Shown: one piece after another, positions 2,190-49,253 of the stretch
How the letters are laid out: each line of letters opens with the position of its first letter
Numbering within the stretch: position 1 is the stretch's first letter
Assembly: GCA_964593375.1 (NCBI GenBank)
Contig: CAZQIF010000003.1
Span: 11,210 to 75,209 of the forward strand
Source: an uncultured Candidatus Saccharibacteria bacterium
GTDB lineage: Bacteria; Patescibacteriota; Minisyncoccia; Phycocordibacterales; UBA918
DNA: 64,000 nt
Direction of reading: 5' to 3'
Translations under genes and position numbers: made by a program
Notes under the pieces: generated by a model
The model's database searches: none
What the model was told of the DNA's origin: nothing
The model's input: only the letters and a program-made list of their open reading frames with translations

Positions 2190-2295
2190 GTTGCTCCGGC
2201 AAAAAATGAGTAGCCGAAGCATACAACACCGCCGGCGAAGCCGGTGGTTACCAAGGCCAAAGCACCGGCCTAACCAGTTCTTCAAAACCCGATTG

Positions 2296-2340
2296 CGTGA
2301 CGGACACATAGTATATGTGTCCGTCACAAGATCTTTTTCA
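2296..2340 (+). terminator. hairpin plus T-tract (intrinsic terminator candidate)
   Basis: Perfect 14-bp inverted repeat GTGACGGACACATA/TATGTGTCCGTCAC followed by AAGATCTTTTT, 106 nt after the lipoprotein stop. Confidence 0.45.
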
Positions 2341-2403
2341 AACTTTCGATACTCTCGCGTACAGGGGTGTAGGTGTGAGTATTTAGAAGCAAGAAACATT
2401 AAT

Positions 2404-5400
2404 ATGAAAACAATTACCACAATTATAAAGACAGACGCATTCAAATATGCGATTTTTGCGTTTCTTATCGCAACGGTTGCATTCTTTGCAGTACTCCCAT
2501 TTATTTCAGATATTAATCCACACGTGAGTGGTCCTTCGCTCTCTGCGCTCCTCGTGACCGCCGATGATGGCGGTGGCGATTCAGGGTCTGGAGACTCCGG
2601 TTCAGGTGACAGCGGTACTGGCGACTCAGGTTCAGGAAGCTCAGATGGAGGCGACACCGGCTCAGGTACACCCGGCGATGGTTGCTGTGGTGACGACACC
2701 GGCTCAGGCGAAACTGGTACTGGCGACTCAGGTTCAGGCGAAACTGGAGTTGGCACACCTGGTGACGGCTGTTGTGGTGACGGTGGTAGTGATACTGGCG
2801 GGACACCAACCGATTCAGGAAATTCTGGTGGTGGTGAAGTAGCATGTTCACCCATTTGGAACGGGTGCGGTGGTTACTGGTACCAGAACAGTTGTATCTA
2901 TTCGTGTCCAACAGGGACACATGCAGAAAACGTAAGTGGCGCAAATGATGCTCAGTATTGTGGACTCTCATACAATACTTGTGAACCAAACCCAGTCGAA
3001 GTTGAACCTTCATGTTCAATTTCTGCAAACCCTAACCCCTGTACACTTGGTGCTAATTCACTTTGTGCGAGCTCAATTTCATGGTCGACGGAGAACATGA
3101 GTAACCCTGCAGTTTTCGTGCAGTCAACAGGTCAAAAGTTTGCTGCAGACGATAGTGGAAGTCAGTCGGCTCCATGGATTGATCATGCGGGCGTGACTTT
3201 TGTCGTTAAGGAACAATCTGGTTCTGCTCCAGTCATCTGTTCAGTTTCAGTCTCGGGTGTATGTGCTTCTGGAACGACATGGAATGGCAGTAATTGTGTG
3301 GCACCTACACCTACACCAACCCCAACACCGACACCAACTCCAAGCACACCAACATGTTCTCTTGCTGTGACACAGTCAACGATTACTGCAGGTCAACAGA
3401 CAACGCTTTCATGGTACACAAGTAATTTTCAATCATACAATGTACTCGAGATTGATCGTGGCATAGGTTATGTTACGCCACCACTTAATGGCTCAATGAC
3501 TATTTCGCCGAGCGTGACGACAACCTACACTGGTCATATCATAGATTTCAGTCCGACGAATGTTCGACCATGCTCAGTTACAGTGACGGTTATTCCAGTC
3601 ACTCCAAGTGCACCAACCTGTACACTCACGGCTTCTCCAACTTCAGTAAATCAAGGAAGCGCGTCAACGCTCTCATGGACAACCTCAAACGCCTCAAGTA
3701 TTTCGATTGACCAAGGCGTAGGTGCTGTTGGTGTGAGTGGCTCACAGAGCGTTTCACCAAGCGCAACAAAAACATACACCCTCACCGCAACCGGTGCTGG
3801 GGGTAGTGTGACATGTGCGAAAACGGTAACGGTTATTCCAACACCGAGTGCACCAACCTGTACGCTCACCGCGTCTCCAGCGTCAATCAATCAGGGAAGC
3901 GCGTCGACACTTTCATGGACAACCTCAAATGCGACTTCCGTTTCAATTAACCAAGGCGTAGGTGCTGTTGGTGCGAGTGGCTCAAAGAGTGTTTCTCCAT
4001 CAAACACTACGTCATACACGCTTACTGCGACCGGTGCTGGTGGTACGGTGACCTGTGAAAAGCAGGTGGTTGTAGTAGTACCAAACCCAGCTCCAACCTG
4101 TACGCTTACCGCGTCTCCAACATCAATCAATCAGGGAAGTGCTTCAACACTCAGTTGGACAACAACAAATGCATCGAGTGTGACCCTTAACGAGGGTATT
4201 GGTGCAGTGGCGACGAATGGTTCAAAGAGTGTTTCTCCAAGTGCGACAAAAACGTACACGCTTACAGCTGACGGCGCTGGTGGTACCGTTACGTGTTCAA
4301 AGACCGTGACTGTGGTAGTACCAAATCCTGCACCAACCTGTACGATTACGGTAAATCCTCAGAGTATGACACGTGGTAACTCCGCAATACTTTCATGGAG
4401 CACTACAAATGCGACCGCCGTTGTCATCGACAACAATATCGGCACCGTTTCCCTGAGTGGTACACATACGGTTTCACCAACGGTGACTACTGAATATAAA
4501 CTATCTGCAGTCGGCGCTGGTGGTAGTGTACTCTGCAAAACAACACTTGCGGTGAATGAACCGCCAGTTGCGCCAACGTGTGCGCTTAATGCAAACAAGA
4601 CTGCAATTACCGCTGGTGAAAGTGTTACACTCACCTGGAGTTCAACAAATGCGAACCAAAGTACACTTCAAGGCGTAAATGTCGCGCTCTCAGGAAGTGG
4701 CGTGTACACCCCTGAAACGACAACGACATACACCTATGTGGTAACCGGAGCTGGTGGTTCACAAACCTGCACGAAGACCATTACGGTTACTCCGTATGTT
4801 CCTGTCTCACCAGTATGTTCACTTACGGTAAGTCCAAACAAAATTACAAAGGGAAGTATGGCGACACTCAACTGGACAGTTGGAAATGCGAGTGTGATAT
4901 CAATTGATCAAAACATCGGCACTGTTTCTGCGGTTGATTCTCGTTTAGTGAACCCAATACAAAACACAACCTACACTCTCACGGCTCGCGGTGAAGCAAA
5001 TCAGACCGTGACTTGTGTTGCTTCACTCGTTGTTGAGGAACCGCATGTTGACGATCCGGTGAAGTGCGATGCATTCAGCGCTTCGCCAAGTACGCTTACT
5101 GCTGCTGGCACCACGACACTCACTTGGAATACTTCAAATGCAACGAATGTTTCAATTAACAACGGTGTTGGTACCGTGTCTGAAGATGGCGGAAAAAGTG
5201 TCTTTGTGGAAGCAAATACAACCTACACCCTCACCGCAACCGATGGTGACAAAACAGTAACCTGTCAGACGCAAGTGAACATTGTACCTCCTACGGTGAT
5301 TGTTCCTAAGTGTGACGCGTTCTCGGTCAGTCCATCATCTCTCAATAAGGGTGAAACAGCGACACTTACATGGGCCACCACAAATGCTTCATCAGTTTCG

Positions 5401-6435
5401 ATCAACAATGGTGTTGGTACTGTTGCAGTCGATGGCAATTCATCAGTTACGGTAAATTCTGATACGACCTATACACTCACCGCAACAAATGGAAGTGCAT
5501 CTGATAGTTGCCAAGCGACAGTCACTATTAAATCAAGCGGTGGAGGAGGCGGAGGTGGGTCAAGTTCACCACGCTGTACGCTCACCGCGTCTGATAAGAA
5601 GATTTCGGCAGGTGAACAAGTTACCCTCACGTGGAAGAATACTCGAACAAACGATATCCTGCTCAAGGATAATCGTGGCAACGTGCTCGCTGATTCAAAG
5701 AAGGACAGCAAGATTGATGAAGATGCAGATTCAATCAAGGTAAAGCCAACCAAATCAACGTCATATACGCTTACCGTTATTAAGGGAAGCAAGAAGCGTG
5801 ACTGTACTGTTGATATCAATGTGTCGAATGTGACCGTTTCAAGCAATCGTCCACTCGTTGCGGGTATCTCACTTTCACAGGTTCCGTACACTGGATTTGA
5901 CGCTGGTCCATTCCTTACGACAGTCTTCTATTCACTCATTGTACTTTGGGGACTTGGTATCGCATACGTGCTCGTGCTGAGGGGAAACAAGAATACTCTT
6001 TCTTTGAGTACTCTTACGCCTATTCGGTCAATACCTATGATTAAGGAAGAAGCTCCTGTCCACCGCATTCCGACAATGCTTGTTGCACCAACCGTGACAA
6101 CAGCACCACAAACTTGGAAAGCGGTTAATCCGGTTATTGGGTACGAGTCGCTCTACGCGACTGCACCCGCTTCGGTAATTGAAGAAGAAGTTACTGAGGA
6201 AGCAACCGTTGAACCGCAGGTAGAAGACACCACCGCACTTCTTGAAGGACATGCACATGACGCACATGTGCTCATGTCGAGCGATGCGCTCCGTTTCATT
6301 GCGGGGCAGTCAGCGCTTGTCGAGGAACAGCTTGCAATTCTTGATAAGGTTATTGGTCTTGCAAAGGCGCAGTATCCTTCAGAGAACGGATGGGTCATCG
6401 TCAATAAAGAAAAAACCCTTTCTCTACTCAAATAA
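2404..6435 (+). CDS. giant surface protein with a Gly/Ser/Asp-rich linker, a Cys-rich module, about ten tandem Ig-like repeats, and a C-terminal TM segment followed by an approximately 150-aa tail
   Basis: Start taken at MKTITT (2404) because the 2191 to 2403 extension is Arg-rich junk containing the upstream terminator hairpin. Repeat unit is approximately PTCTLTASPTSxNQGSASTLSWTTSNASS...TYTLTATGAGG.VTC. Hydrophobic segment TTVFYSLIVLWGLGIAYVLVL is preceded by VPYTG. Confidence 0.7.
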   Translation: MKTITTIIKTDAFKYAIFAFLIATVAFFAVLPFISDINPHVSGPSLSALLVTADDGGGDSGSGDSGSGDSGTGDSGSGSSDGGDTGSGTPGDGCCGDDTGSGETGTGDSGSGETGVGTPGDGCCGDGGSDTGGTPTDSGNSGGGEVACSPIWNGCGGYWYQNSCIYSCPTGTHAENVSGANDAQYCGLSYNTCEPNPVEVEPSCSISANPNPCTLGANSLCASSISWSTENMSNPAVFVQSTGQKFAADDSGSQSAPWIDHAGVTFVVKEQSGSAPVICSVSVSGVCASGTTWNGSNCVAPTPTPTPTPTPTPSTPTCSLAVTQSTITAGQQTTLSWYTSNFQSYNVLEIDRGIGYVTPPLNGSMTISPSVTTTYTGHIIDFSPTNVRPCSVTVTVIPVTPSAPTCTLTASPTSVNQGSASTLSWTTSNASSISIDQGVGAVGVSGSQSVSPSATKTYTLTATGAGGSVTCAKTVTVIPTPSAPTCTLTASPASINQGSASTLSWTTSNATSVSINQGVGAVGASGSKSVSPSNTTSYTLTATGAGGTVTCEKQVVVVVPNPAPTCTLTASPTSINQGSASTLSWTTTNASSVTLNEGIGAVATNGSKSVSPSATKTYTLTADGAGGTVTCSKTVTVVVPNPAPTCTITVNPQSMTRGNSAILSWSTTNATAVVIDNNIGTVSLSGTHTVSPTVTTEYKLSAVGAGGSVLCKTTLAVNEPPVAPTCALNANKTAITAGESVTLTWSSTNANQSTLQGVNVALSGSGVYTPETTTTYTYVVTGAGGSQTCTKTITVTPYVPVSPVCSLTVSPNKITKGSMATLNWTVGNASVISIDQNIGTVSAVDSRLVNPIQNTTYTLTARGEANQTVTCVASLVVEEPHVDDPVKCDAFSASPSTLTAAGTTTLTWNTSNATNVSINNGVGTVSEDGGKSVFVEANTTYTLTATDGDKTVTCQTQVNIVPPTVIVPKCDAFSVSPSSLNKGETATLTWATTNASSVSINNGVGTVAVDGNSSVTVNSDTTYTLTATNGSASDSCQATVTIKSSGGGGGGGSSSPRCTLTASDKKISAGEQVTLTWKNTRTNDILLKDNRGNVLADSKKDSKIDEDADSIKVKPTKSTSYTLTVIKGSKKRDCTVDINVSNVTVSSNRPLVAGISLSQVPYTGFDAGPFLTTVFYSLIVLWGLGIAYVLVLRGNKNTLSLSTLTPIRSIPMIKEEAPVHRIPTMLVAPTVTTAPQTWKAVNPVIGYESLYATAPASVIEEEVTEEATVEPQVEDTTALLEGHAHDAHVLMSSDALRFIAGQSALVEEQLAILDKVIGLAKAQYPSENGWVIVNKEKTLSLLK
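3346..5830 (+). repeat. about ten tandem copies of a roughly 240-bp (80-codon) coding repeat
   Basis: Units 3604 to 3843 and 3844 to 4083 are roughly 85 percent identical at the nucleotide level. The antisense 79-aa ORFs at 3651 to 3890 and 3891 to 4130 are shadows of the repeat. Confidence 0.8.
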
Positions 6436-6462
6436 AATAGAGAATAGAAGATAGAAAATATA

Positions 6463-6497
6463 GAAACACCCGCACAGCAAAGCTGTGCGGGTGTTTC
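6463..6497. terminator. bidirectional hairpin between convergent genes
   Basis: GAAACACCCGCACAGC aaa GCTGTGCGGGTGTTTC, a perfect 16-bp stem, between the surface protein (+) and thrS (-), flanked by AT-rich repeats. Confidence 0.55.
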
Positions 6498-6537
6498 TAT
6501 TCTATATTCAATATTTCTATATCCTATATCCTATATT

Positions 6538-8295
6538 CTACAGTGTTTTCGTCTCAACCTCAGTAAGGAGATGATTCCCAAGCTTTGAGACCGACATCTG
6601 CTCTGACGTACCATTTCGTGACTCAAGCGTGACATTTTTCTCAGCAACTTCCTTGTCTCCAACGACAACAAAGTAGGGAAGTTTATCTATTTTTGCATTG
6701 CGGATTTTCTTTCCCATCGATTCGTTACTATCGTCGAGCGTTGCGCGAATACCCACTGCCTTGAGTTCATCAAAGACTGTCTTTGCGTATTCGGTATGGA
6801 TTTCTGAAACCGGAATAATACGTACCTGTTCTGGAGAAAGCCAGAGAGGGAAGTTTCCACCAAGGTGTTCAATAAGTACTGCAGAGAAACGTTCAATCGA
6901 ACCCATGATTGCGCAGTGAATCATTACAATGCGTTCTTTTTCGCCTTGCTCATTGACGCAGGTAAGATCGAAGCGCTCGGGCATGTTCATGTCGAGCTGG
7001 ATGGTTGCAACTTGATGCTCACGTCCGAGAGAATCTTTTGCCATGAAGTCGAGCTTCGGTCCGTACATCGCTGCTTCTCCTTGTGCCTCAAAGTAATCAG
7101 CATTTCGCTCTTTTGCAATTTCTCTGAGTGCATTTTCCGCGTTACTCCAAATTTCTGGTGTACCAAGATACTTTTTGAACTCGAGCGGATCATGGAAGGA
7201 AAGTCGTACGCGAAGTTTGAAGCCGAATGCTCCATAGAAGGTGTCTATGATGTCCCAAATTTTGAAGAATTCTTGCTTCACCTGATTGTGTCTGCAGAAT
7301 ACATGCGAGTCGTCTTGTGTGATTGATAAGACGCGCGTGAGACCGCCAAGCTCGCCCGATTGTTCATCTCGATAGACCATTGTTGTTTCAGCGTATCGTT
7401 GTGGCATGTTGCGGTAACTGTGGGGTTGTCGGTCAAAAATTTGTGTGTGATGAGGGCAGTTCATGGGCTTCAGTGCATACTCTTTTCCTTCACGGGTTGT
7501 AATGCGGAAAAGCTCATCAGCAAATTTATCCCAGTGTCCTGATGTTTCGTAGAGATTCTTTTTTGTGATATGCGGAACGGTCACACGCTCATACCCATGC
7601 TTCAGTCGAAGTTCCCACACAAAGCTATCGAGGAGATGACGAATTTGCGTTCCTTTTGGTGTCCAGAGAGGAAGTCCTGGTCCGACGAGTTCTGAAAATG
7701 TGAAGAGGTCGAGTTCTTTCCCAAGTTTACGATGGTCTCGCTTCTTTGCTTCTTCAATTTGGTTAACGTACGCATCAAGTTCTTCTTTGGTGTCAAACGC
7801 GTACCCATAGATGCGGGTGAGCATCGGATTTTTTTCATCCCCGCGCCAGTACGCACCCGCGACAGCGTGGAGCGTGAACGAATCGCTCCCGATTTCTTCT
7901 GCTGGCTTTTCTGAATGGCCACCACGACAGAGGTCGGTGAATGCTTGGTCGCCTGAGCCGACCGTGTAGAGGGTGATAGTTGCACCTTCTTTTTCGAGGC
8001 CATTGATGAGCTCAGTCTTGAAGACGTTTCCGGCGAAGGCCTCACGGGCTTCGGGGGCCGTGACTTCCTTGTGCGAAAATTCTTTCCAAGAGGGAAGGAT
8101 TCTACGCATCTGCTTCTCAATTCCCTTCAAATCTTCAGTGGTTGGCGCTTCCCCACCGCTAAAATCAAAATCGTAATAGAACCCATTTTCGATTGATGGG
8201 CCTATGGTTGGCTTTGCGTGTGGGTACTGCGTTGTGATGACCTTTGCAAGAAGATGGGCAAGGGTATGTCGTTTTTGGGTGAGCTTGTCTTCCAT
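6538..8295 (-). CDS. thrS: threonyl-tRNA synthetase (lacks the N-terminal TGS domain, editing domain present)
   Basis: Class II motifs including KPMNCPHHTQIF; editing-domain HxxxH (RHTLAHLLA) and CxxxH (LCRGGH); anticodon-binding C-terminus. Confidence 0.9.
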   Translation of the reverse strand: MEDKLTQKRHTLAHLLAKVITTQYPHAKPTIGPSIENGFYYDFDFSGGEAPTTEDLKGIEKQMRRILPSWKEFSHKEVTAPEAREAFAGNVFKTELINGLEKEGATITLYTVGSGDQAFTDLCRGGHSEKPAEEIGSDSFTLHAVAGAYWRGDEKNPMLTRIYGYAFDTKEELDAYVNQIEEAKKRDHRKLGKELDLFTFSELVGPGLPLWTPKGTQIRHLLDSFVWELRLKHGYERVTVPHITKKNLYETSGHWDKFADELFRITTREGKEYALKPMNCPHHTQIFDRQPHSYRNMPQRYAETTMVYRDEQSGELGGLTRVLSITQDDSHVFCRHNQVKQEFFKIWDIIDTFYGAFGFKLRVRLSFHDPLEFKKYLGTPEIWSNAENALREIAKERNADYFEAQGEAAMYGPKLDFMAKDSLGREHQVATIQLDMNMPERFDLTCVNEQGEKERIVMIHCAIMGSIERFSAVLIEHLGGNFPLWLSPEQVRIIPVSEIHTEYAKTVFDELKAVGIRATLDDSNESMGKKIRNAKIDKLPYFVVVGDKEVAEKNVTLESRNGTSEQMSVSKLGNHLLTEVETKTL

Positions 8296-8531
8296 ATGAG
8301 TTTTTATTAAGTATTCTTATAAACTAAAAAACGTCCGAGTAAAAATACGATAATTCGCATTTTTACTCGGACGATCTTTTGACCGCGGTTCCACCGAGCT
8401 TCTGAGGCCGTAAGCCCCAGCACTTTAGGTATCAAATTAGGCACATTAGTGCGTCGCATAGGACTGGTAGTTGGTAGCCACCACAATCTCTGATGTAGCT
8501 GTTATCGTATCGTGTTACTAGGTATTGTCAA
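8296..8531 (-). promoter_or_regulatory. candidate T-box riboswitch leader of thrS (Stem I with AGAGA and ACC codons, T-box sequence, terminator hairpin plus U-tract)
   Basis: On the minus strand: GCUCGGUGGAACCGCGG (T-box-like, UGGA bulge), then hairpin GTCCGAGTAAAAAT...ATTTTTACTCGGAC and GTTTTTT ending 25 nt before the thrS ATG. Upstream, CAUCAGAGAUUG and GGCUACCAACUACCAG. Possible TTGACA -35 at 8531 to 8526. Confidence 0.5.
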
Positions 8532-8602
8532 CAAGTTTGAAGGTGGTACACGAAATTGGAGAAGAGTCGAACTCCAGGTTCTCTAAGTGAGCATACAGCT
8601 AT

Positions 8603-8630
8603 TGACATAATTGCACTATGTTGCTATAAT
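8603..8630 (+). promoter_or_regulatory. consensus sigma70 promoter (TTGACA, 16 nt, TATAAT)
   Basis: Perfect -35 and -10 hexamers; divergent from the thrS leader; drives the small ORF at 8730. Confidence 0.5.
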
Positions 8631-9225: not shown

Positions 9226-10197
9226 ATGGCCAAGAAAATGAAAGAAAAACAACTCGTTATCTACCAGACAAAGTCGGGTGCTCTTGAGTTGCGTGGTGAT
9301 GTCGAGAAAGAGACTCTGTGGGCAACGCAGACACAGATTGCAGAGGTGTTTCAGTCAGAACGCTCAGTTATTACAAAACATATAAGAAACATTCTAAAGG
9401 ACGGAGAACTTGAGGAAAATTCAGTATGTGCAAATTTTGCACATACTGCCGAGGATGGAAAAGTATACCAAGTAAGGTTCTATAATTTGGATGTAATTCT
9501 TGCGGTTGGTTATAGAACAAATTCAAAAAAAGCTGTTGAATTTCGCCAGTGGGCAACGAAGACACTCCGCGAACACATCACCAAAGGTTATACCATCAAC
9601 CGCAAGCGCATTGCTCAAAATTATGATGCACTCATGAAGGATGTTGAGGGTATACAAAATCTTTTACCTGAACACGTTACACTCGACCCTAAAATAGTCC
9701 TTGAACTCATCAAGGAGTTTGCTTCGACATGGGTGTCGCTCGATGCATACGATAAAGAGTCTCTGGAACTCAAAGGAATTACCAAAAAGCGAGTAACACT
9801 CGTGAGTGCTGATCTTCATACTGCGATTATGGATCTTAAGAAAGAGCTCATGCGAAAGGGCGAGGCAACTGATATGTTTGCGTCCGAGCGTAAGGCAGGG
9901 AACATTGAAGGAATTGTTGGTAACGTGATGCAGTCATTTGGCGGAAAGCCCATGTACGCAACTGTCGAAGAAAAAGCGGCACATCTTCTCTATTTCATGG
10001 TTAAAAATCACCCATTCACTGACGGCAATAAACGTTCAGGTGCTTTTGCGTTTGTGTGGTTCCTCAGAAAAGCCGGCGTGAAGGGAAGTAGAAATATTAA
10101 TCCCGTAGCGCTTACGGCACTCACCCTTCTTATTGCTGAAAGTGACGCACAGAAAAAAGATCAAATGGTTGCACTCATCACGCACATGTTGCGGTAG
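9226..10197 (+). CDS. RhuM-family N-terminal domain fused to a Doc/Fic-family domain
   Basis: N-terminus resembles RhuM (VILAVGYRTNSKKAVEFRQWATKTLREHITKGY). C-terminal HPFTDGNKRSG matches the Doc-type HxFx(D/N)(A/G)NKR Fic motif. Confidence 0.75.
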   Translation: MAKKMKEKQLVIYQTKSGALELRGDVEKETLWATQTQIAEVFQSERSVITKHIRNILKDGELEENSVCANFAHTAEDGKVYQVRFYNLDVILAVGYRTNSKKAVEFRQWATKTLREHITKGYTINRKRIAQNYDALMKDVEGIQNLLPEHVTLDPKIVLELIKEFASTWVSLDAYDKESLELKGITKKRVTLVSADLHTAIMDLKKELMRKGEATDMFASERKAGNIEGIVGNVMQSFGGKPMYATVEEKAAHLLYFMVKNHPFTDGNKRSGAFAFVWFLRKAGVKGSRNINPVALTALTLLIAESDAQKKDQMVALITHMLR

Positions 10198-10216: not shown

Positions 10217-13200
10217 TTATTCAGGAGATTTTTCTTCTGTACCACCAAGCGCTTTTACCTTCTCAAGCGCAATTGTTGGCTCTTCATTTCTGATTGAGAG
10301 GCGGCCTTTCACGGCGACGCAGGTGCCGGGGATGAGGAGATTTTGGTGCGCGCGATACGTTTCAGGGAATGCGACGAGTTCAACGGTGTCGGTATAGTCA
10401 CCGAGCTGAACGAAGGCCATTTTCTCTCCCTTTTTTGTGAGTAGCTCACGTACGGTTTCAATCATACCAGCGGTCACAACCGGAATGCCGTTTCGGCTGT
10501 CTCGTTTGATGCTTGTAATCGTTGAGCGTTTTGCAAGTTCTTCTGCATACTCATCGAGCGGGTGTCCGGAAACATATACGCCAAGAAGTTCTTTTTCCCA
10601 CGTGAGTTTTTCGATTTTGGTGGCCAGAGGAGCTTCGGCGAGAGTCACTTCGTGGAATGCGACATCGGGAACAAGTCCAAAGAGTGAGTCTTGAGAGGAT
10701 TCTTTGCTTGATGCGTGTTCTTTGTGGTACGCGAGGAGGACGTCAATATTTGCGAGCATTCTTCCACGATCTTCAAATCGGTCGAAGGCCCCCGACATGA
10801 TGAGTGCCTCGAGTGACTTTTTATTTAAATTTCTATTTGTGATTCTCTTGAGGAAATCTGAGAGCGATGCAAATGGTCCGTTAGTCTTACGCTCTTCGAT
10901 TATGGCTTCGGAAATGCCTTCGCCAAAATTCTTGATTGTGGTCAGCCCAAACCTGATTTTCGCGGGCACGTCGTGCCCCAGGGTACTCTCTCTGCCTTCG
11001 GCATTCACCTTGTCGTGCGCCGGAACAACTGAGAAGGGCCCGAAGCTCTCATTTATGTCAGGTGGTAACACCTCAATCTGCATGTGCTCACACTCGTGAA
11101 TAATTTCCGAAATTTTTTCGGTGTCGCCGGCGTCTGCGGTGAGTACTGCAGACATATACTCGACCGGATAGTTCGCCTTCATGTATGCGGTCTGGTATGC
11201 GACGCGACCATAGCTCGCGGCGTGTGCCTTGTTGAATCCGTAGGCGGCAAATGGCTCGATGAGTTTCCAAAGTTTTTCAGCAAGCATGGGGGAGAGCTTT
11301 CCAAATTCAGTAAAGCCCCTCAGAAGCTTTTCTTTTTCTGCTTCCATAACCGCGGGAATTTTCTTTCCCATTGCTTTGCGGAGCATGTCGGCTTCGAGCC
11401 ATGAGTAGCCCGCGAGCTCGCGCGCAATCATCATGACGTCATCTTGGTATGTGATGACACCATAGGAACGCTCGAGTACTTTTTCAAGGCGTGGATCAAG
11501 ATACGCAATGAGTTTCGCATTGTGTTTGCGTTCAATGTACTGTGGAATCGATTCCATTGGCCCCGGGCGATAGAGGGCCACCATCGCGTTGATGTCGTGA
11601 ATCGAAGTCGGGCGTAGTTGCTTGAGAAATGCGGTCATACCGGAACCGTTCAATTGGAAGAGACCCATGGTTTCGCCGCGTGCGAGCATCTCAAAAGTTT
11701 TTTTATCGTCGAGTGGAATATTTTCAATATCGATTTCAACTTTGTGAATGACACGCACGCGGCGCACTGCCTCTGCAAGAATAGAGAGGTTTTTAATACC
11801 GAGAAAATCGAACTTGAGAAGCCCCACACCGTCTTCACCAACGGAGTGCATTTCATACTGCGTGATGAGTTTGCCGGTTTTCGGGTCGGGCTGGAGTGGT
11901 ACAAACTCCGTGAGTGGTCGCGGTGCAATCACGACACCCGCTGCGTGCACACCCACATGGCGCACACGTCCTTCAATTTGTTTCGCGAGGTCAATGACCT
12001 GCTTGGTGTCAGGATCTTTTTTGTAGAGGTCCATGAGGTCGGGTTCAATATCCATCGCATGCGTGATGGTCATTGGAAATCCTTGGCTTCCCATCGGAAT
12101 GAGTTTTGCAATGCGGTCGCCGGTTGAATATGGATGACCGAGGGCGCGCGCGACGTCACGTACCGCAGCGCGCGCCATCATGGTTCCAAAGGTACCTATT
12201 TGTGCAACATGGTCTTGGCCATATTTCGCGCGCGCATAGTCGATGATTTCGTCACGGCGGTTGTCGGCATAGTCCATGTCGATATCGGGAGCGGATGGTC
12301 GTTCAGGATTAAGAAAACGTTCGAAGGGAAGTTTGTACTCGAGTGGATTTACATTGGTAATACCGAGCACGTAGGTTGTGAGTGAACCCGCGACCGAACC
12401 TCGAATGGTGGTGAGAATTTTTCGTTCGCGTGCTTCACGAATGAGGTCACCCACGACGAGAAAGTATTTTGCATAACCCTTCATCTTGATGACTGAAAGT
12501 TCGTAGTCGAGGCGCTCTTTCACAATAGGGTCTTCGAGCGTGAGACCGCGCCACGCCACACCCTCATACGCAGTATGGTGGAGTTCATCATCAGGTTCAC
12601 GCTTGCTCTCAATTTTGTAGTCGGGGAAATACCAGTTTTTTCCGGGTGACATCGTGACGGTGCATGCTTCGGCAATTCTGACCGTATTTGCGAGAGCCTC
12701 GGGGGTATCTTTAAAAAGTTCTTTGGCAGTTTCCTGTGAAATAAAAGAAAAGTTTGGGGCAAGTTCACCACTATCATCAGTGGTGTCGAGAATACCACCG
12801 TGCTGAATTTTGAGCATTGCTTCACGCGCGAGGTGGTCGGTTTTATTTAGGTAGTAGACATCATGCGCCGCAACAAGTGGTGTTCCTGAACGTTTTCCGA
12901 GCGCAATAATTTTTTCTTGGAGTGCCTCATGTTCCTGAATTTCTGGATGATGGGTGACCTCGAGGTAACAGTGTTCACCAAAAACGCTCTTGTACCAGTC
13001 GAGACTTGCTCCAGCTTTTTCCGCATCTCCGTCTTTGAGTGCAAGCACTGGTTCACCACTAAATGAAGGGATGATGCAGACGAGATTTTTTCCAAATTCT
13101 GCGAGGAGATCATGGTCGATGCGTGGTCGGTAATAGAATCCATTCACGTATGATTCGGTCACCATCTTGATGAGGTTCACGTACCCATCATTATTTTGTG

Positions 13201-13510
13201 CAAGAAGCACGACACGACCACGAGGCTTATCAATACCAGAGTCTTTGTCGTTCCGCGTGCGTGGTGCGAGATATGCATCGATGCCGATGATTGGTTTTAT
13301 ACCTTCCTTGGTGCAGGCTTTATAAAAATCGATGGCACCATAGAGGGCACCGTTATCGGTAAGCGCAAGAGCGGGCATACCAAACTCTTTTGCTTTTTGT
13401 GCAAGTTCTTTTGGCTTAGGAATCGCACTCAGAAGTGAGTAATGCGAATGAGTATGCAAGTGAATAAAATCGGCACTGAGTTCCTGTCTATCTGGCATAG
13501 TAAAATTCAT
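10217..13510 (-). CDS. dnaE: DNA polymerase III alpha subunit
   Basis: PHP domain (FIHLHTHSHYSLL), polymerase core and OB fold; 1097 aa. Confidence 0.92.
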   Translation of the reverse strand: MNFTMPDRQELSADFIHLHTHSHYSLLSAIPKPKELAQKAKEFGMPALALTDNGALYGAIDFYKACTKEGIKPIIGIDAYLAPRTRNDKDSGIDKPRGRVVLLAQNNDGYVNLIKMVTESYVNGFYYRPRIDHDLLAEFGKNLVCIIPSFSGEPVLALKDGDAEKAGASLDWYKSVFGEHCYLEVTHHPEIQEHEALQEKIIALGKRSGTPLVAAHDVYYLNKTDHLAREAMLKIQHGGILDTTDDSGELAPNFSFISQETAKELFKDTPEALANTVRIAEACTVTMSPGKNWYFPDYKIESKREPDDELHHTAYEGVAWRGLTLEDPIVKERLDYELSVIKMKGYAKYFLVVGDLIREARERKILTTIRGSVAGSLTTYVLGITNVNPLEYKLPFERFLNPERPSAPDIDMDYADNRRDEIIDYARAKYGQDHVAQIGTFGTMMARAAVRDVARALGHPYSTGDRIAKLIPMGSQGFPMTITHAMDIEPDLMDLYKKDPDTKQVIDLAKQIEGRVRHVGVHAAGVVIAPRPLTEFVPLQPDPKTGKLITQYEMHSVGEDGVGLLKFDFLGIKNLSILAEAVRRVRVIHKVEIDIENIPLDDKKTFEMLARGETMGLFQLNGSGMTAFLKQLRPTSIHDINAMVALYRPGPMESIPQYIERKHNAKLIAYLDPRLEKVLERSYGVITYQDDVMMIARELAGYSWLEADMLRKAMGKKIPAVMEAEKEKLLRGFTEFGKLSPMLAEKLWKLIEPFAAYGFNKAHAASYGRVAYQTAYMKANYPVEYMSAVLTADAGDTEKISEIIHECEHMQIEVLPPDINESFGPFSVVPAHDKVNAEGRESTLGHDVPAKIRFGLTTIKNFGEGISEAIIEERKTNGPFASLSDFLKRITNRNLNKKSLEALIMSGAFDRFEDRGRMLANIDVLLAYHKEHASSKESSQDSLFGLVPDVAFHEVTLAEAPLATKIEKLTWEKELLGVYVSGHPLDEYAEELAKRSTITSIKRDSRNGIPVVTAGMIETVRELLTKKGEKMAFVQLGDYTDTVELVAFPETYRAHQNLLIPGTCVAVKGRLSIRNEEPTIALEKVKALGGTEEKSPE

Positions 13511-47978: not shown

Positions 47979-49253
47979 TTATTCAAAACTTGCCGTTTTG
48001 CCTCGAAATTCACTCAATTCTGAAAGTTTTGTTAGTTCCGAGACTGAACCTTTGGTTTCAGACTTATCTGAAAGTTTTTTGAGTGTATACGACTGTGATG
48101 TAACTTCATTTTCACCAACAACAAGAATGTACCGCGAACCCGCGTCGCTCGCAGAACTAATTTTTTTGGCGAGTTTTTTGGTGCCAAAAGCAGTTGCTGT
48201 GGTTACTCCTGATTTTCTGAACGCATCGGCAATCTTAAGTGCTTCAGTATTCTGTGCTTCTTCGGCAGGAATAACGACGAGTGTTGGAGCGGTCACATGA
48301 ATATTTTTTGGAAGGAGCTTGTGAGTCTCTAAAAAGTCGCGCATGATGACATCTCCCATACCAAAGCCAATACCAGAAATTGGGTCGCCACCGAAAAGAC
48401 TCGTGAGATTGTCATAGCGTCCTCCGCCGAGCATCGAACGATTGTTGTCACCAGATTTGTCAAAGATTTCAAAGACTGTGCCCGTGTAGTAGTTGAAACC
48501 ACGAACAGTTGTAGGTGAAAATCCTACATTTGAAATGCCTAATTCTAAGAGTCCACCAATAACTTTCGATAGATTACTTTCCTCTGGGACTTCCGATGGA
48601 ATAGTAAAGGCTTTTTCGGTAATCTTTTTAACTTCCTCATCAAAATTATTGATTTTTTCTTTACGATCAAGAAGTGCAAGCAGAGATTTGCACTCAGTAT
48701 CGTCGAAACCAAAATCCCTTAAATATTGATTCAGGTGGGAGCGGTTATTAATCCGAATTTCAAACATTTCGGGAGTCGCTCCAAAATCAATAAGCACGTT
48801 GTATGCAAGTGCAATCATTTCAATATCAGCAGAAATGTCGTTTGAGCCGAAGAGGTCACAGTTAAACTGCCAGTGTTCGCGGAGGCGACCACGCTGTGGG
48901 CGTTCATAGCGGAAAAGATTTGGGATTGAGTACCAGCGCACAGGGAAACTGAGTTCACGACGCTTGCCTGCAATCATACGTGCAACGGTTGGGGTCATCT
49001 CGGGGCGTATGGTAACTTCACGGTCGCCACGGTCAATGAAGGTGTATGTTTGTTCGTTTACAAGCTCCTCATTTTCAGCACCCTTACTCTTATAGAGTTC
49101 AGAAGGTTCAAGGACCGATGCGTCATACCGTTCGTAGCCAAAGGACTCTGCGGTCTTTGCCCAGGTGTCAAAAATATAGCGTTGTATCGCCATGTCTTCG
49201 GGATAGAAGTCACGGGTTCCTTTATAGGGCTCAGTTCCAAGGATTTTTGACAT
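47979..49253 (-). CDS. hisS: histidyl-tRNA synthetase
   Basis: Class II motifs and HisRS-specific blocks (GTRDFYPEDMA, GGGRYDNL). Confidence 0.9.
   Translation of the reverse strand: MSKILGTEPYKGTRDFYPEDMAIQRYIFDTWAKTAESFGYERYDASVLEPSELYKSKGAENEELVNEQTYTFIDRGDREVTIRPEMTPTVARMIAGKRRELSFPVRWYSIPNLFRYERPQRGRLREHWQFNCDLFGSNDISADIEMIALAYNVLIDFGATPEMFEIRINNRSHLNQYLRDFGFDDTECKSLLALLDRKEKINNFDEEVKKITEKAFTIPSEVPEESNLSKVIGGLLELGISNVGFSPTTVRGFNYYTGTVFEIFDKSGDNNRSMLGGGRYDNLTSLFGGDPISGIGFGMGDVIMRDFLETHKLLPKNIHVTAPTLVVIPAEEAQNTEALKIADAFRKSGVTTATAFGTKKLAKKISSASDAGSRYILVVGENEVTSQSYTLKKLSDKSETKGSVSELTKLSELSEFRGKTASFE

Follow-up and report, generated by a model that had tools for sequence, protein, structure and literature searches.

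T-box riboswitches that act on transcription generally require a long Stem I with a platform that binds the tRNA elbow, and the purine motif RRRxG...AA that flanks Stem III is a feature of the T-box discriminator (PMC7583486). Earlier surveys found T-boxes in Firmicutes, Actinobacteria, Chloroflexi, Deinococcus-Thermus and two deltaproteobacteria (PMC2494555). Ultrashort (US) Stem I T-boxes of ileS occur in Actinobacteria (Mycobacterium and Nocardia), as described by Sherwood et al. in 2015 and summarised since (bioRxiv 10.1101/2023.02.28.530422; PMC7583486). The US T-boxes are translational, operating through an SD sequestrator. No gene other than ileS and no tRNA other than tRNA-Ile has been reported for them, and a K-turn, a Stem II S-turn and a IIA/B pseudoknot are needed for their function (bioRxiv 10.1101/2023.02.28.530422; PMC7583486). 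Gene regulation in Patescibacteria has been called virtually unknown in a 2024 perspective (PMC11665869). In the literature searched, no report was found that links T-boxes with CPR, Patescibacteria, Parcubacteria or Saccharibacteria, nor was a transcriptional, thrS-specific compact T-box found described.

The locus considered here lies on the minus strand of a 64-kb stretch of DNA (the whole of what was analysed, hereafter the window). The region at 8296-8531 is interpreted, with a probability of about 85%, as a transcription-attenuating thrS T-box riboswitch with a non-canonical compact tRNA-decoding module. The elements of sequence and secondary structure, their covariation, the mutual exclusion of two folds and the linkage to thrS are shown by this analysis; the coordinates of the features are collected in Table 1. 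The leader sits in a 930-bp gap 5' of the thrS ORF, which carries a class-II aaRS core, an HGTP anticodon-binding domain and a tRNA_SAD domain (Pfam) and begins with an ATG at 8295. Close homologues of the product carry the name threonine--tRNA ligase, and one of them is labelled Candidatus Kaiserbacteria. Since the GTDB genomes with the best ThrRS relatives belong to the Patescibacteria (Parcubacteria/Paceibacterota, Minisyncoccia, Nomurabacteria, Falkowbacteria and others), the host is judged to be a Patescibacteria/CPR bacterium and not a Firmicute. The hint at a Firmicutes-type lineage in the preliminary description of this region is thus abandoned.

Table 1. Features of the thrS leader and its gene (window coordinates; paired strands are given in 5' to 3' order of the RNA)
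Feature	Position	Strand	Basis
-35 box TTGACA of the thrS leader promoter	8526-8531	-	consensus scan
-10 box TACGAT	8504-8509	-	consensus scan; predicted start near 8497
thrS leader RNA, whole T-box riboswitch, about 200 nt	8296-8497	-	sequence, RF00230, model R1
P0 5' strand AUCAGA, 5'-terminal helix closing the decoding module	8489-8494	-	pairs with 8431-8436; covariation; MFE fold
Junction strand GAUUG, nearly invariant	8484-8488	-	alignment column counts
H1 Specifier hairpin, 6-bp stem UGGUGG/CUACCA, 7-nt loop CUACCAA	8465-8483	-	covariation; RNAalifold
Specifier codon ACC (Thr), followed by conserved purine A8472	8473-8475	-	column counts, free-loop scan
H2, short variable hairpin GUC-CUAUGC-GAC	8453-8464	-	window MFE fold; relatives
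H3, short hairpin GCAC-UAAU-GUGC, abutting the junction	8441-8452	-	window MFE fold; relatives
Junction strand CUAA; C and AA invariant	8437-8440	-	alignment column counts
P0 3' strand UUUGAU	8431-8436	-	covariation
Purine string AAGUG, the RRRxG motif 5' of Stem III	8421-8425	-	direct reading; aligns to RF00230 consensus AGuG
Stem III CUGGGGCU-UAC-GGCCUCAG	8402-8420	-	RF00230 alignment, folding
T-box core GCUCGGUGGAACCGCGG	8383-8399	-	sequence
Antiterminator	8365-8399	-	MFE, covariation, RF00230 alignment
Helix A1, 6 bp	8399-8394 with 8370-8365	-	covaries
T-box bulge UGGAACC, 7 nt	8393-8387	-	MFE of isolated element
Helix A2, 6 bp, G8386-U8371 wobble at its base	8386-8381 with 8376-8371	-	supported
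Intrinsic terminator hairpin, 19 bp	8332-8373	-	folding, terminator scan
Terminator U-tract U6	8326-8331	-	sequence, terminator scan
thrS, threonyl-tRNA synthetase (585 aa), regulated gene	6538-8295	-	Pfam tRNA-synt_2b, HGTP_anticodon, tRNA_SAD; homologue names

Related leaders are found upstream of thrS in dozens of other genomes and metagenome contigs. The sequence GGTGGAACC is present within about 330 nt upstream of thrS, mostly at 60-135 nt, in 17 thrS loci, and 12 of these 17 share a recurrent 5' motif, (A)GAGAUUG, followed by a 6-bp hairpin with the 7-nt loop CUACCAA. A metagenome scan with the pattern GAGATTG-N70-100-GGTGGNACCGCG, which left the loop, the codon and the UGGN base free, returned 120 loci, about 29 of them with the hairpin in register and all of these with ACC in the loop and UGGA. 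The remaining metagenome loci have no hairpin and any base in UGGN. Since every in-register leader from this free-codon scan carries ACC and UGGA, it yielded no other codon specificity of the same architecture; the only other hairpin in register (locus L083, loop GUGCGAC) was rejected as a chance match inside a coding ORF. thrS lies downstream in all 36 members with readable downstream sequence. Thirty-five leaders, all from Patescibacteria where the source is named, were aligned with MAFFT, and a hand-drawn structure of four helices (P0, H1, A1 and A2) was scored on the alignment. In this structure 91% of the cells are paired and the covariation is 0.615 as against 0.228 after shuffling (0 of 500 shuffles as high), a kind of statistic that, here and below, is inflated by the relatedness of the sequences. 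Sliding the partners by 1-3 columns gives at most 0.134. The way in which the members were collected is itself responsible for some of the invariance (that of GAGAUUG, the T-box core and ACC).

A covariance model (R1) was built from this alignment with the window sequence in its seed. It finds the window leader at 8364-8497 with 93.8 bits, a score that follows by construction from the seed, and it gives exactly one hit per CPR contig. R1 also detects weaker and more divergent versions 5' of thrS in Doudna-, Uhr-, Kerfeld- and Magasanikbacteria and in Saccharimonadia. hisS (47979-49253, minus strand), the other aaRS gene of the window, has about 58 nt upstream in which neither RF00230 nor R1 finds a T-box. 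As an internal negative control, hisS suggests that the leader is specific to thrS. Other matches to GGTGGNACC were discarded: those at window positions 4279 (within ORF 2191-6435), 35030, 53517 and 54376 have no hit to RF00230 (E up to 0.1) or R1 (E up to 1), and those in the relatives' loci L040, L002 and L022 sit in apparent coding sequence.

The 3' half of the leader has the organisation of a T-box discriminator followed by a terminator. The core GCUCGGUGGAACCGCGG agrees with the T-box sequence AGGGUGGNACCGCG and forms a 7-nt bulge between helices A1 and A2, in keeping with the near-consensus T-box core reported in the preliminary description. Stem III is flanked by the RRRxG string on one side and on the other by AA (8400-8401), which is invariant or nearly so among the aligned leaders. 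When folded in isolation, the antiterminator (8401-8364) has an MFE structure of A1, the 7-nt bulge and A2 at -14.2 kcal/mol. The base A of UGGA is found in every member although the metagenome pattern left it free, and non-members carry A, C, G or U. The terminator (8376-8324 folded) has a free energy of -29.1 kcal/mol (z = -8.8). Its 5' arm is built in part from 8373-8365, which also supply 3' strands to A2 and A1, and the terminator and antiterminator are therefore mutually exclusive; the overlap is between the antiterminator 3' strands (8376-8365) and the terminator 5' arm (8373-8354). The arms GTCCGAGTAAAAAT and ATTTTTACTCGGAC that had been described as a 14-bp hairpin are real, but the hairpin has 19 bp, and the U-tract that had been noted after it ends 30 nt before the ATG rather than 25. 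The window's arrangement is kept in 36 of 37 members: 37-47 nt downstream of CGYCCNNNN (the 3' strands of A2 and A1) there is a stretch complementary to at least 8 of its 9 positions, and a U-rich tail comes after it. Among the members, variable positions of the terminator arm change together with A1.

The energies of the two folds bear on another reading of the locus, as a decayed or tRNA-independent attenuator (a terminator, either constitutive or under the control of a protein, with leftover T-box-like sequence). Such an element would agree with a terminator far more stable than the antiterminator (-29.1 as against -14.2 kcal/mol) and with the lack of the element in some close relatives, and the binding of tRNA is itself a prediction. 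However, in T-boxes the terminator is normally the stronger of the two folds (PMC7583486). Furthermore, diverse Patescibacteria show clear purifying and compensatory selection on the Specifier loop, P0, A1, A2, UGGAACC and the purine string, and a decayed or tRNA-independent element is quite improbable.

The 5' half of the leader forms the putative decoding module. Helix P0 joins the nucleotides just 5' of GAUUG to those just 3' of the conserved CUAA. The four-way junction that P0 closes contains the hairpins H1, H2 and H3 and is lined by the GAUUG and CUAA strands. The MFE fold of the 75-nt module of the window is exactly P0, H1, H2 and H3, and the stability of the module does not exceed that of shuffled sequences (z = -1.27). 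P0 alone, scored on its five core pairs in the 35 leaders, has 93% of cells paired and a covariation of 0.651 as against 0.177 after shuffling (0 of 500 as high). Its pair at alignment columns 7-91 is AU in 25 leaders, GC in 7, CG in 2 and UA in 1, with no mismatch. All six pairs of H1 covary and 98% of their cells are paired. Unguided RNAalifold finds H1, A1 and A2 on the 35-leader alignment and does not predict P0. An alternative register for P0, GAUUG/UAAUC, was rejected as the main helix: 94% of its cells are paired, but it has no compensatory changes at all and conflicts with the covarying pairs. Three further pairs (U12-A88, U13-A87 and G14-U86) could extend P0 beyond a GA bulge. In metagenome-derived rows the search pattern itself accounts for part of the invariance of GAUUG, and GAUUG is also present in most genome-derived rows.

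The stem of H1 differs in sequence from genome to genome while its loop, CUACCAA, is constant. The loop, C-U-ACC-A-A, follows the anticodon-loop pattern Y-U-NNN-R-A and displays a Thr codon, ACC, that matches the amino acid of the regulated gene and has a purine next to it; all 35 of the aligned leaders have ACC-A. The Specifier had been located in the right segment, with two ACC triplets that are both present, but only the first is the Specifier. The second (8468-8466) is part of the H1 stem and is not conserved in relatives. Nor is the segment Stem-I-like, as had been proposed: it belongs to a four-way junction, in which a 6-bp hairpin carries the codon in its terminal loop. An AGAGA at 8491-8487 had been assigned to the same Stem I; the sequence is there, but it consists of the P0 5' strand plus the conserved GA and is not an AG bulge. 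At the position of H2 and H3 most relatives have two adjacent short hairpins of variable sequence and length, and neither an AGUA/GAA nor an F-box motif is conserved in H2 and H3. In the 5' half no K-turn, AG bulge, distal platform or loop, S-turn or IIA/B pseudoknot (F-box) was found. The conserved GAUUG and CUAA junction strands could play a role equivalent to the support given by the K-turn, S-turn and IIA/B elements.

The form of H1 invites comparison with the autoregulatory operator of Escherichia coli thrS, at which the synthetase binds a mimic of the tRNA-Thr anticodon arm. H1 does resemble an anticodon arm, with its 7-nt Y-U-NNN-R-A loop, and it lies in a thrS leader. ThrRS recognises G35 and U36 of tRNA-Thr. 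The H1 loop, however, displays the codon ACC rather than GGU, UGU or CGU and has no G35 and U36. Moreover, 170 nt separate the element from the start codon, and it is coupled to a T-box discriminator and terminator. A ThrRS operator is extremely unlikely on these grounds. The loop might instead pair within the RNA, its ACCA acting on the UGG of the T-box bulge as a built-in mimic of a tRNA 3' end, since by direct reading the CCA of the loop is complementary to UGG. Yet the bulge is invariably UGGA, whereas ACCA would need UGGU; ACCA is intrinsic to any Thr Specifier with its purine, and pairing of this kind would yield unregulated read-through. Self-pairing of loop and bulge is scarcely credible as the function of H1.

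At gathering thresholds, an Rfam scan reported nothing in the 64-kb window. In E-value mode RF00230 (the T-box family) is the best Rfam hit of the whole window, at 39.4 bits (E 3.1e-5), which is significant though below the gathering score of 93. Together with the mutually exclusive folds, this hit supports the proposal of the preliminary description that a T-box riboswitch controls thrS. Only the 3' half of the leader aligns well, with high posterior probability for AGUG, Stem III, AA and the antiterminator. For Stem I, the alignment deletes 65 model positions, down to 16 nt, contains several non-pairs and lays the remainder over the promoter. The other members score 36-46 bits with RF00230 or fall short of E 0.01, and Rfam-based resources such as TBDB (PMC7778990) would for this reason not list the divergent loci.

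On a further reading the leader would be a plain RF00230 T-box, with a Stem I that starts near 8540 and is regular though degenerate, in which case TTGACA would belong to a K-turn (as its UGA) and not to a promoter. The cmscan alignment does begin at model position 1 at 8540 and matches UGA...AGUA...GA. On the other hand, its extensive deletions and non-pairs in Stem I, the low scores of the other members with RF00230, and the covarying P0 and H1, which account for the 5' region instead, argue against a degenerate Stem I. In addition, apart from promoter-like hexamers at roughly constant short spacing, there is no conservation among relatives upstream of (A)GAGAUUG. A degenerate Stem I is very improbable. 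The TTGACA, already proposed as a -35 box, is followed after 16 nt by TACGAT, and the pair matches the sigma-70 consensus at 10 of 12 positions in a consensus scan. Transcription is predicted, from this spacing, to start near 8497, about 5 nt 5' of helix P0. In relatives, read by eye, a -10-like hexamer lies about 8-13 nt upstream of the conserved (A)GAGAUUG. Because the -10 box is about a dozen nucleotides or less from (A)GAGAUUG in the window and in relatives, there is no room for a long Stem I, and the hallmarks of one (K-turn, internal Specifier loop, AG bulge and distal loop or elbow platform) are missing from the leader.

The relatives vary in several respects. Stem III is described as indispensable in studied T-boxes. 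About 13 of the 35 members lack it and have a purine-rich linker (for example AAAAAGAACAAAGUUG) before A1 (L033, L040, L091, L118, L154, L162, L165, L179, L196, L198, L199, L004 and L128). The G-U wobble at the base of A2 is described as a steric sensor of the aminoacyl group; at the corresponding alignment columns (162 and 202) 20 of 35 members have G-C, and the window keeps G-U. Divergent thrS leaders of Patescibacteria (L013, L024, L031, L078, L019 and L048) have the same discriminator with different or even smaller 5' modules. L013 has a 4-bp hairpin with the loop CUACCAA directly before the purine string, and the 5' module of L024 has a 9-nt loop, CCUAACCAA. In L196, L117, L101, L133 and L164 the ThrRS alignment starts at about residue 184 of the window protein, and these shorter synthetases appear to be without the N-terminal editing region. 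The closest genome relative (L003, 85% ThrRS identity) has no T-box, and the presence of the leader is thus patchy even among near relatives.

The surroundings of thrS also differ between these two genomes. In L003 thrS comes directly after dnaE, and the stretch that separates them (L003 2050-2520) contains no more than a promoter-like TATATT and a short hairpin resembling a terminator. In the window, a RhuM/Fic-domain ORF on the opposite strand (9226-10197, plus strand) and the T-box leader separate dnaE (10217-13510, minus strand) from thrS, an arrangement that may reflect an insertion. A perfect sigma-70 consensus promoter (TTGACA, 17 nt, TATAAT and an upstream TG) at 8602-8630 on the plus strand faces away from thrS, toward the RhuM/Fic gene and a 99-aa ORF for which Pfam gives no hit. 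On its other side, thrS is convergent with a 1414-aa ORF (2191-6435, plus strand) that has no Pfam domain at E 1e-5. Between the two lies a perfect 19-bp palindromic hairpin (6460-6500), terminator-like on both strands, that is the source of spurious sub-threshold Rfam hits to Thr_leader and BTnc005.

From these elements we infer that the leader binds tRNA, that the bulge matches the discriminator base and that binding proceeds without a Stem I platform. The anticodon of uncharged tRNA-Thr(GGU) would pair with ACC in the H1 loop, and the tRNA 3' end, predicted to be UCCA, would pair with the UGGA of the bulge. These contacts would lock the antiterminator and allow RNA polymerase to read through into thrS. 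The 3' end of a charged tRNA could not dock, in which case the 19-bp terminator would form and transcription would stop at the U-tract. As a pure speculation, the conserved GA and AA purines of the junction might help a loop-loop helix like that between two anticodons. The UGGA bulge predicts U73 as the discriminator base of tRNA-Thr; no tRNA-Thr gene was found in the window or in 51 CPR loci, and none from CPR among all 200 loci.

It is slightly more likely than not that the leader represents a distinct, unannotated architectural class of T-box: transcriptional, dedicated to thrS and widespread in Patescibacteria, with some lineages without Stem III. Members of this class would have no elbow platform, a four-way-junction module closed by the RNA's own 5' end, and an anticodon-arm-like hairpin (loop CUACCAA) that reads the tRNA-Thr anticodon loop to loop. 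If so, co-transcriptional sensing of tRNA is possible without a long Stem I, and, in the literature searched, no natural riboswitch-type regulator would have been described in CPR bacteria before this one. It would be a concrete regulator of the response to amino-acid starvation in Patescibacteria and would extend the known phyletic range of T-boxes. Published phylogenies place CPR near Chloroflexi within Terrabacteria, and the presence of a T-box fits such a placement. Rfam-based pipelines at default thresholds would miss the whole class, for which R1 or the alignment could seed a new family. At about 130 nt, the leader may also offer a small system for testing the minimum requirements of tRNA decoding.

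Compared with known systems, the leader shares most with the canonical T-boxes of RF00230 (Bacillus subtilis thrS, tyrS and glyQS) in its 3' half. Both have RRRxG, Stem III, AA, A1, the 7-nt UGGNACC and A2, and both have a competing terminator with a U-tract and thus the same regulatory logic. In canonical T-boxes, too, the Specifier matches the regulated aaRS; its third base is C, and a purine follows it. The leader differs from them in its 5' half, which is without the K-turn, the internal Specifier loop with S-turn, the AG bulge and the distal double-T-loop elbow platform of Stem I, and without a recognisable Stem II S-turn or IIA/B pseudoknot. Its codon is instead in a terminal heptaloop, its 5' end pairs downstream of three hairpins to form a four-way junction, and its host belongs to Patescibacteria and not to Firmicutes. 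The leader is transcriptional yet without the Stem I platform that such T-boxes generally need (PMC7583486). This weighs against the reading proposed here, since tRNA would have to be captured fast enough by other means. The glyQS T-box, which has no Stem II or IIA/B, is also transcriptional with reduced domains, but it keeps the long Stem I, K-turn and elbow platform that are absent here.

The E. coli thrS operator resembles the leader in being a thrS leader with an anticodon-arm-like hairpin. That hairpin is an anticodon mimic and binds the ThrRS protein at the ribosome-binding site, whereas the hairpin here displays a codon and is accompanied by a discriminator and a terminator. The nearest known class is that of the US T-boxes, from which the leader is set apart here by way of secondary descriptions. 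In both, the Specifier is in the terminal loop of a very short helix, there is no elbow platform and the discriminator is kept. None of the K-turn, Stem II S-turn and IIA/B pseudoknot of the US T-boxes was found in the leader, whose module is enclosed by P0 and which belongs to Patescibacteria. Reviews confine the codon in a terminal loop to the translational ileS T-boxes of Actinobacteria, and a terminator-coupled thrS leader with a simpler Specifier hairpin would be a natural counter-example. In place of the SD sequestrator and antisequestrator of the US T-boxes, the leader has an intrinsic terminator with its end 30 nt upstream of the ATG, and in place of ileS and tRNA-Ile it combines thrS, the codon ACC and, as predicted, tRNA-Thr.
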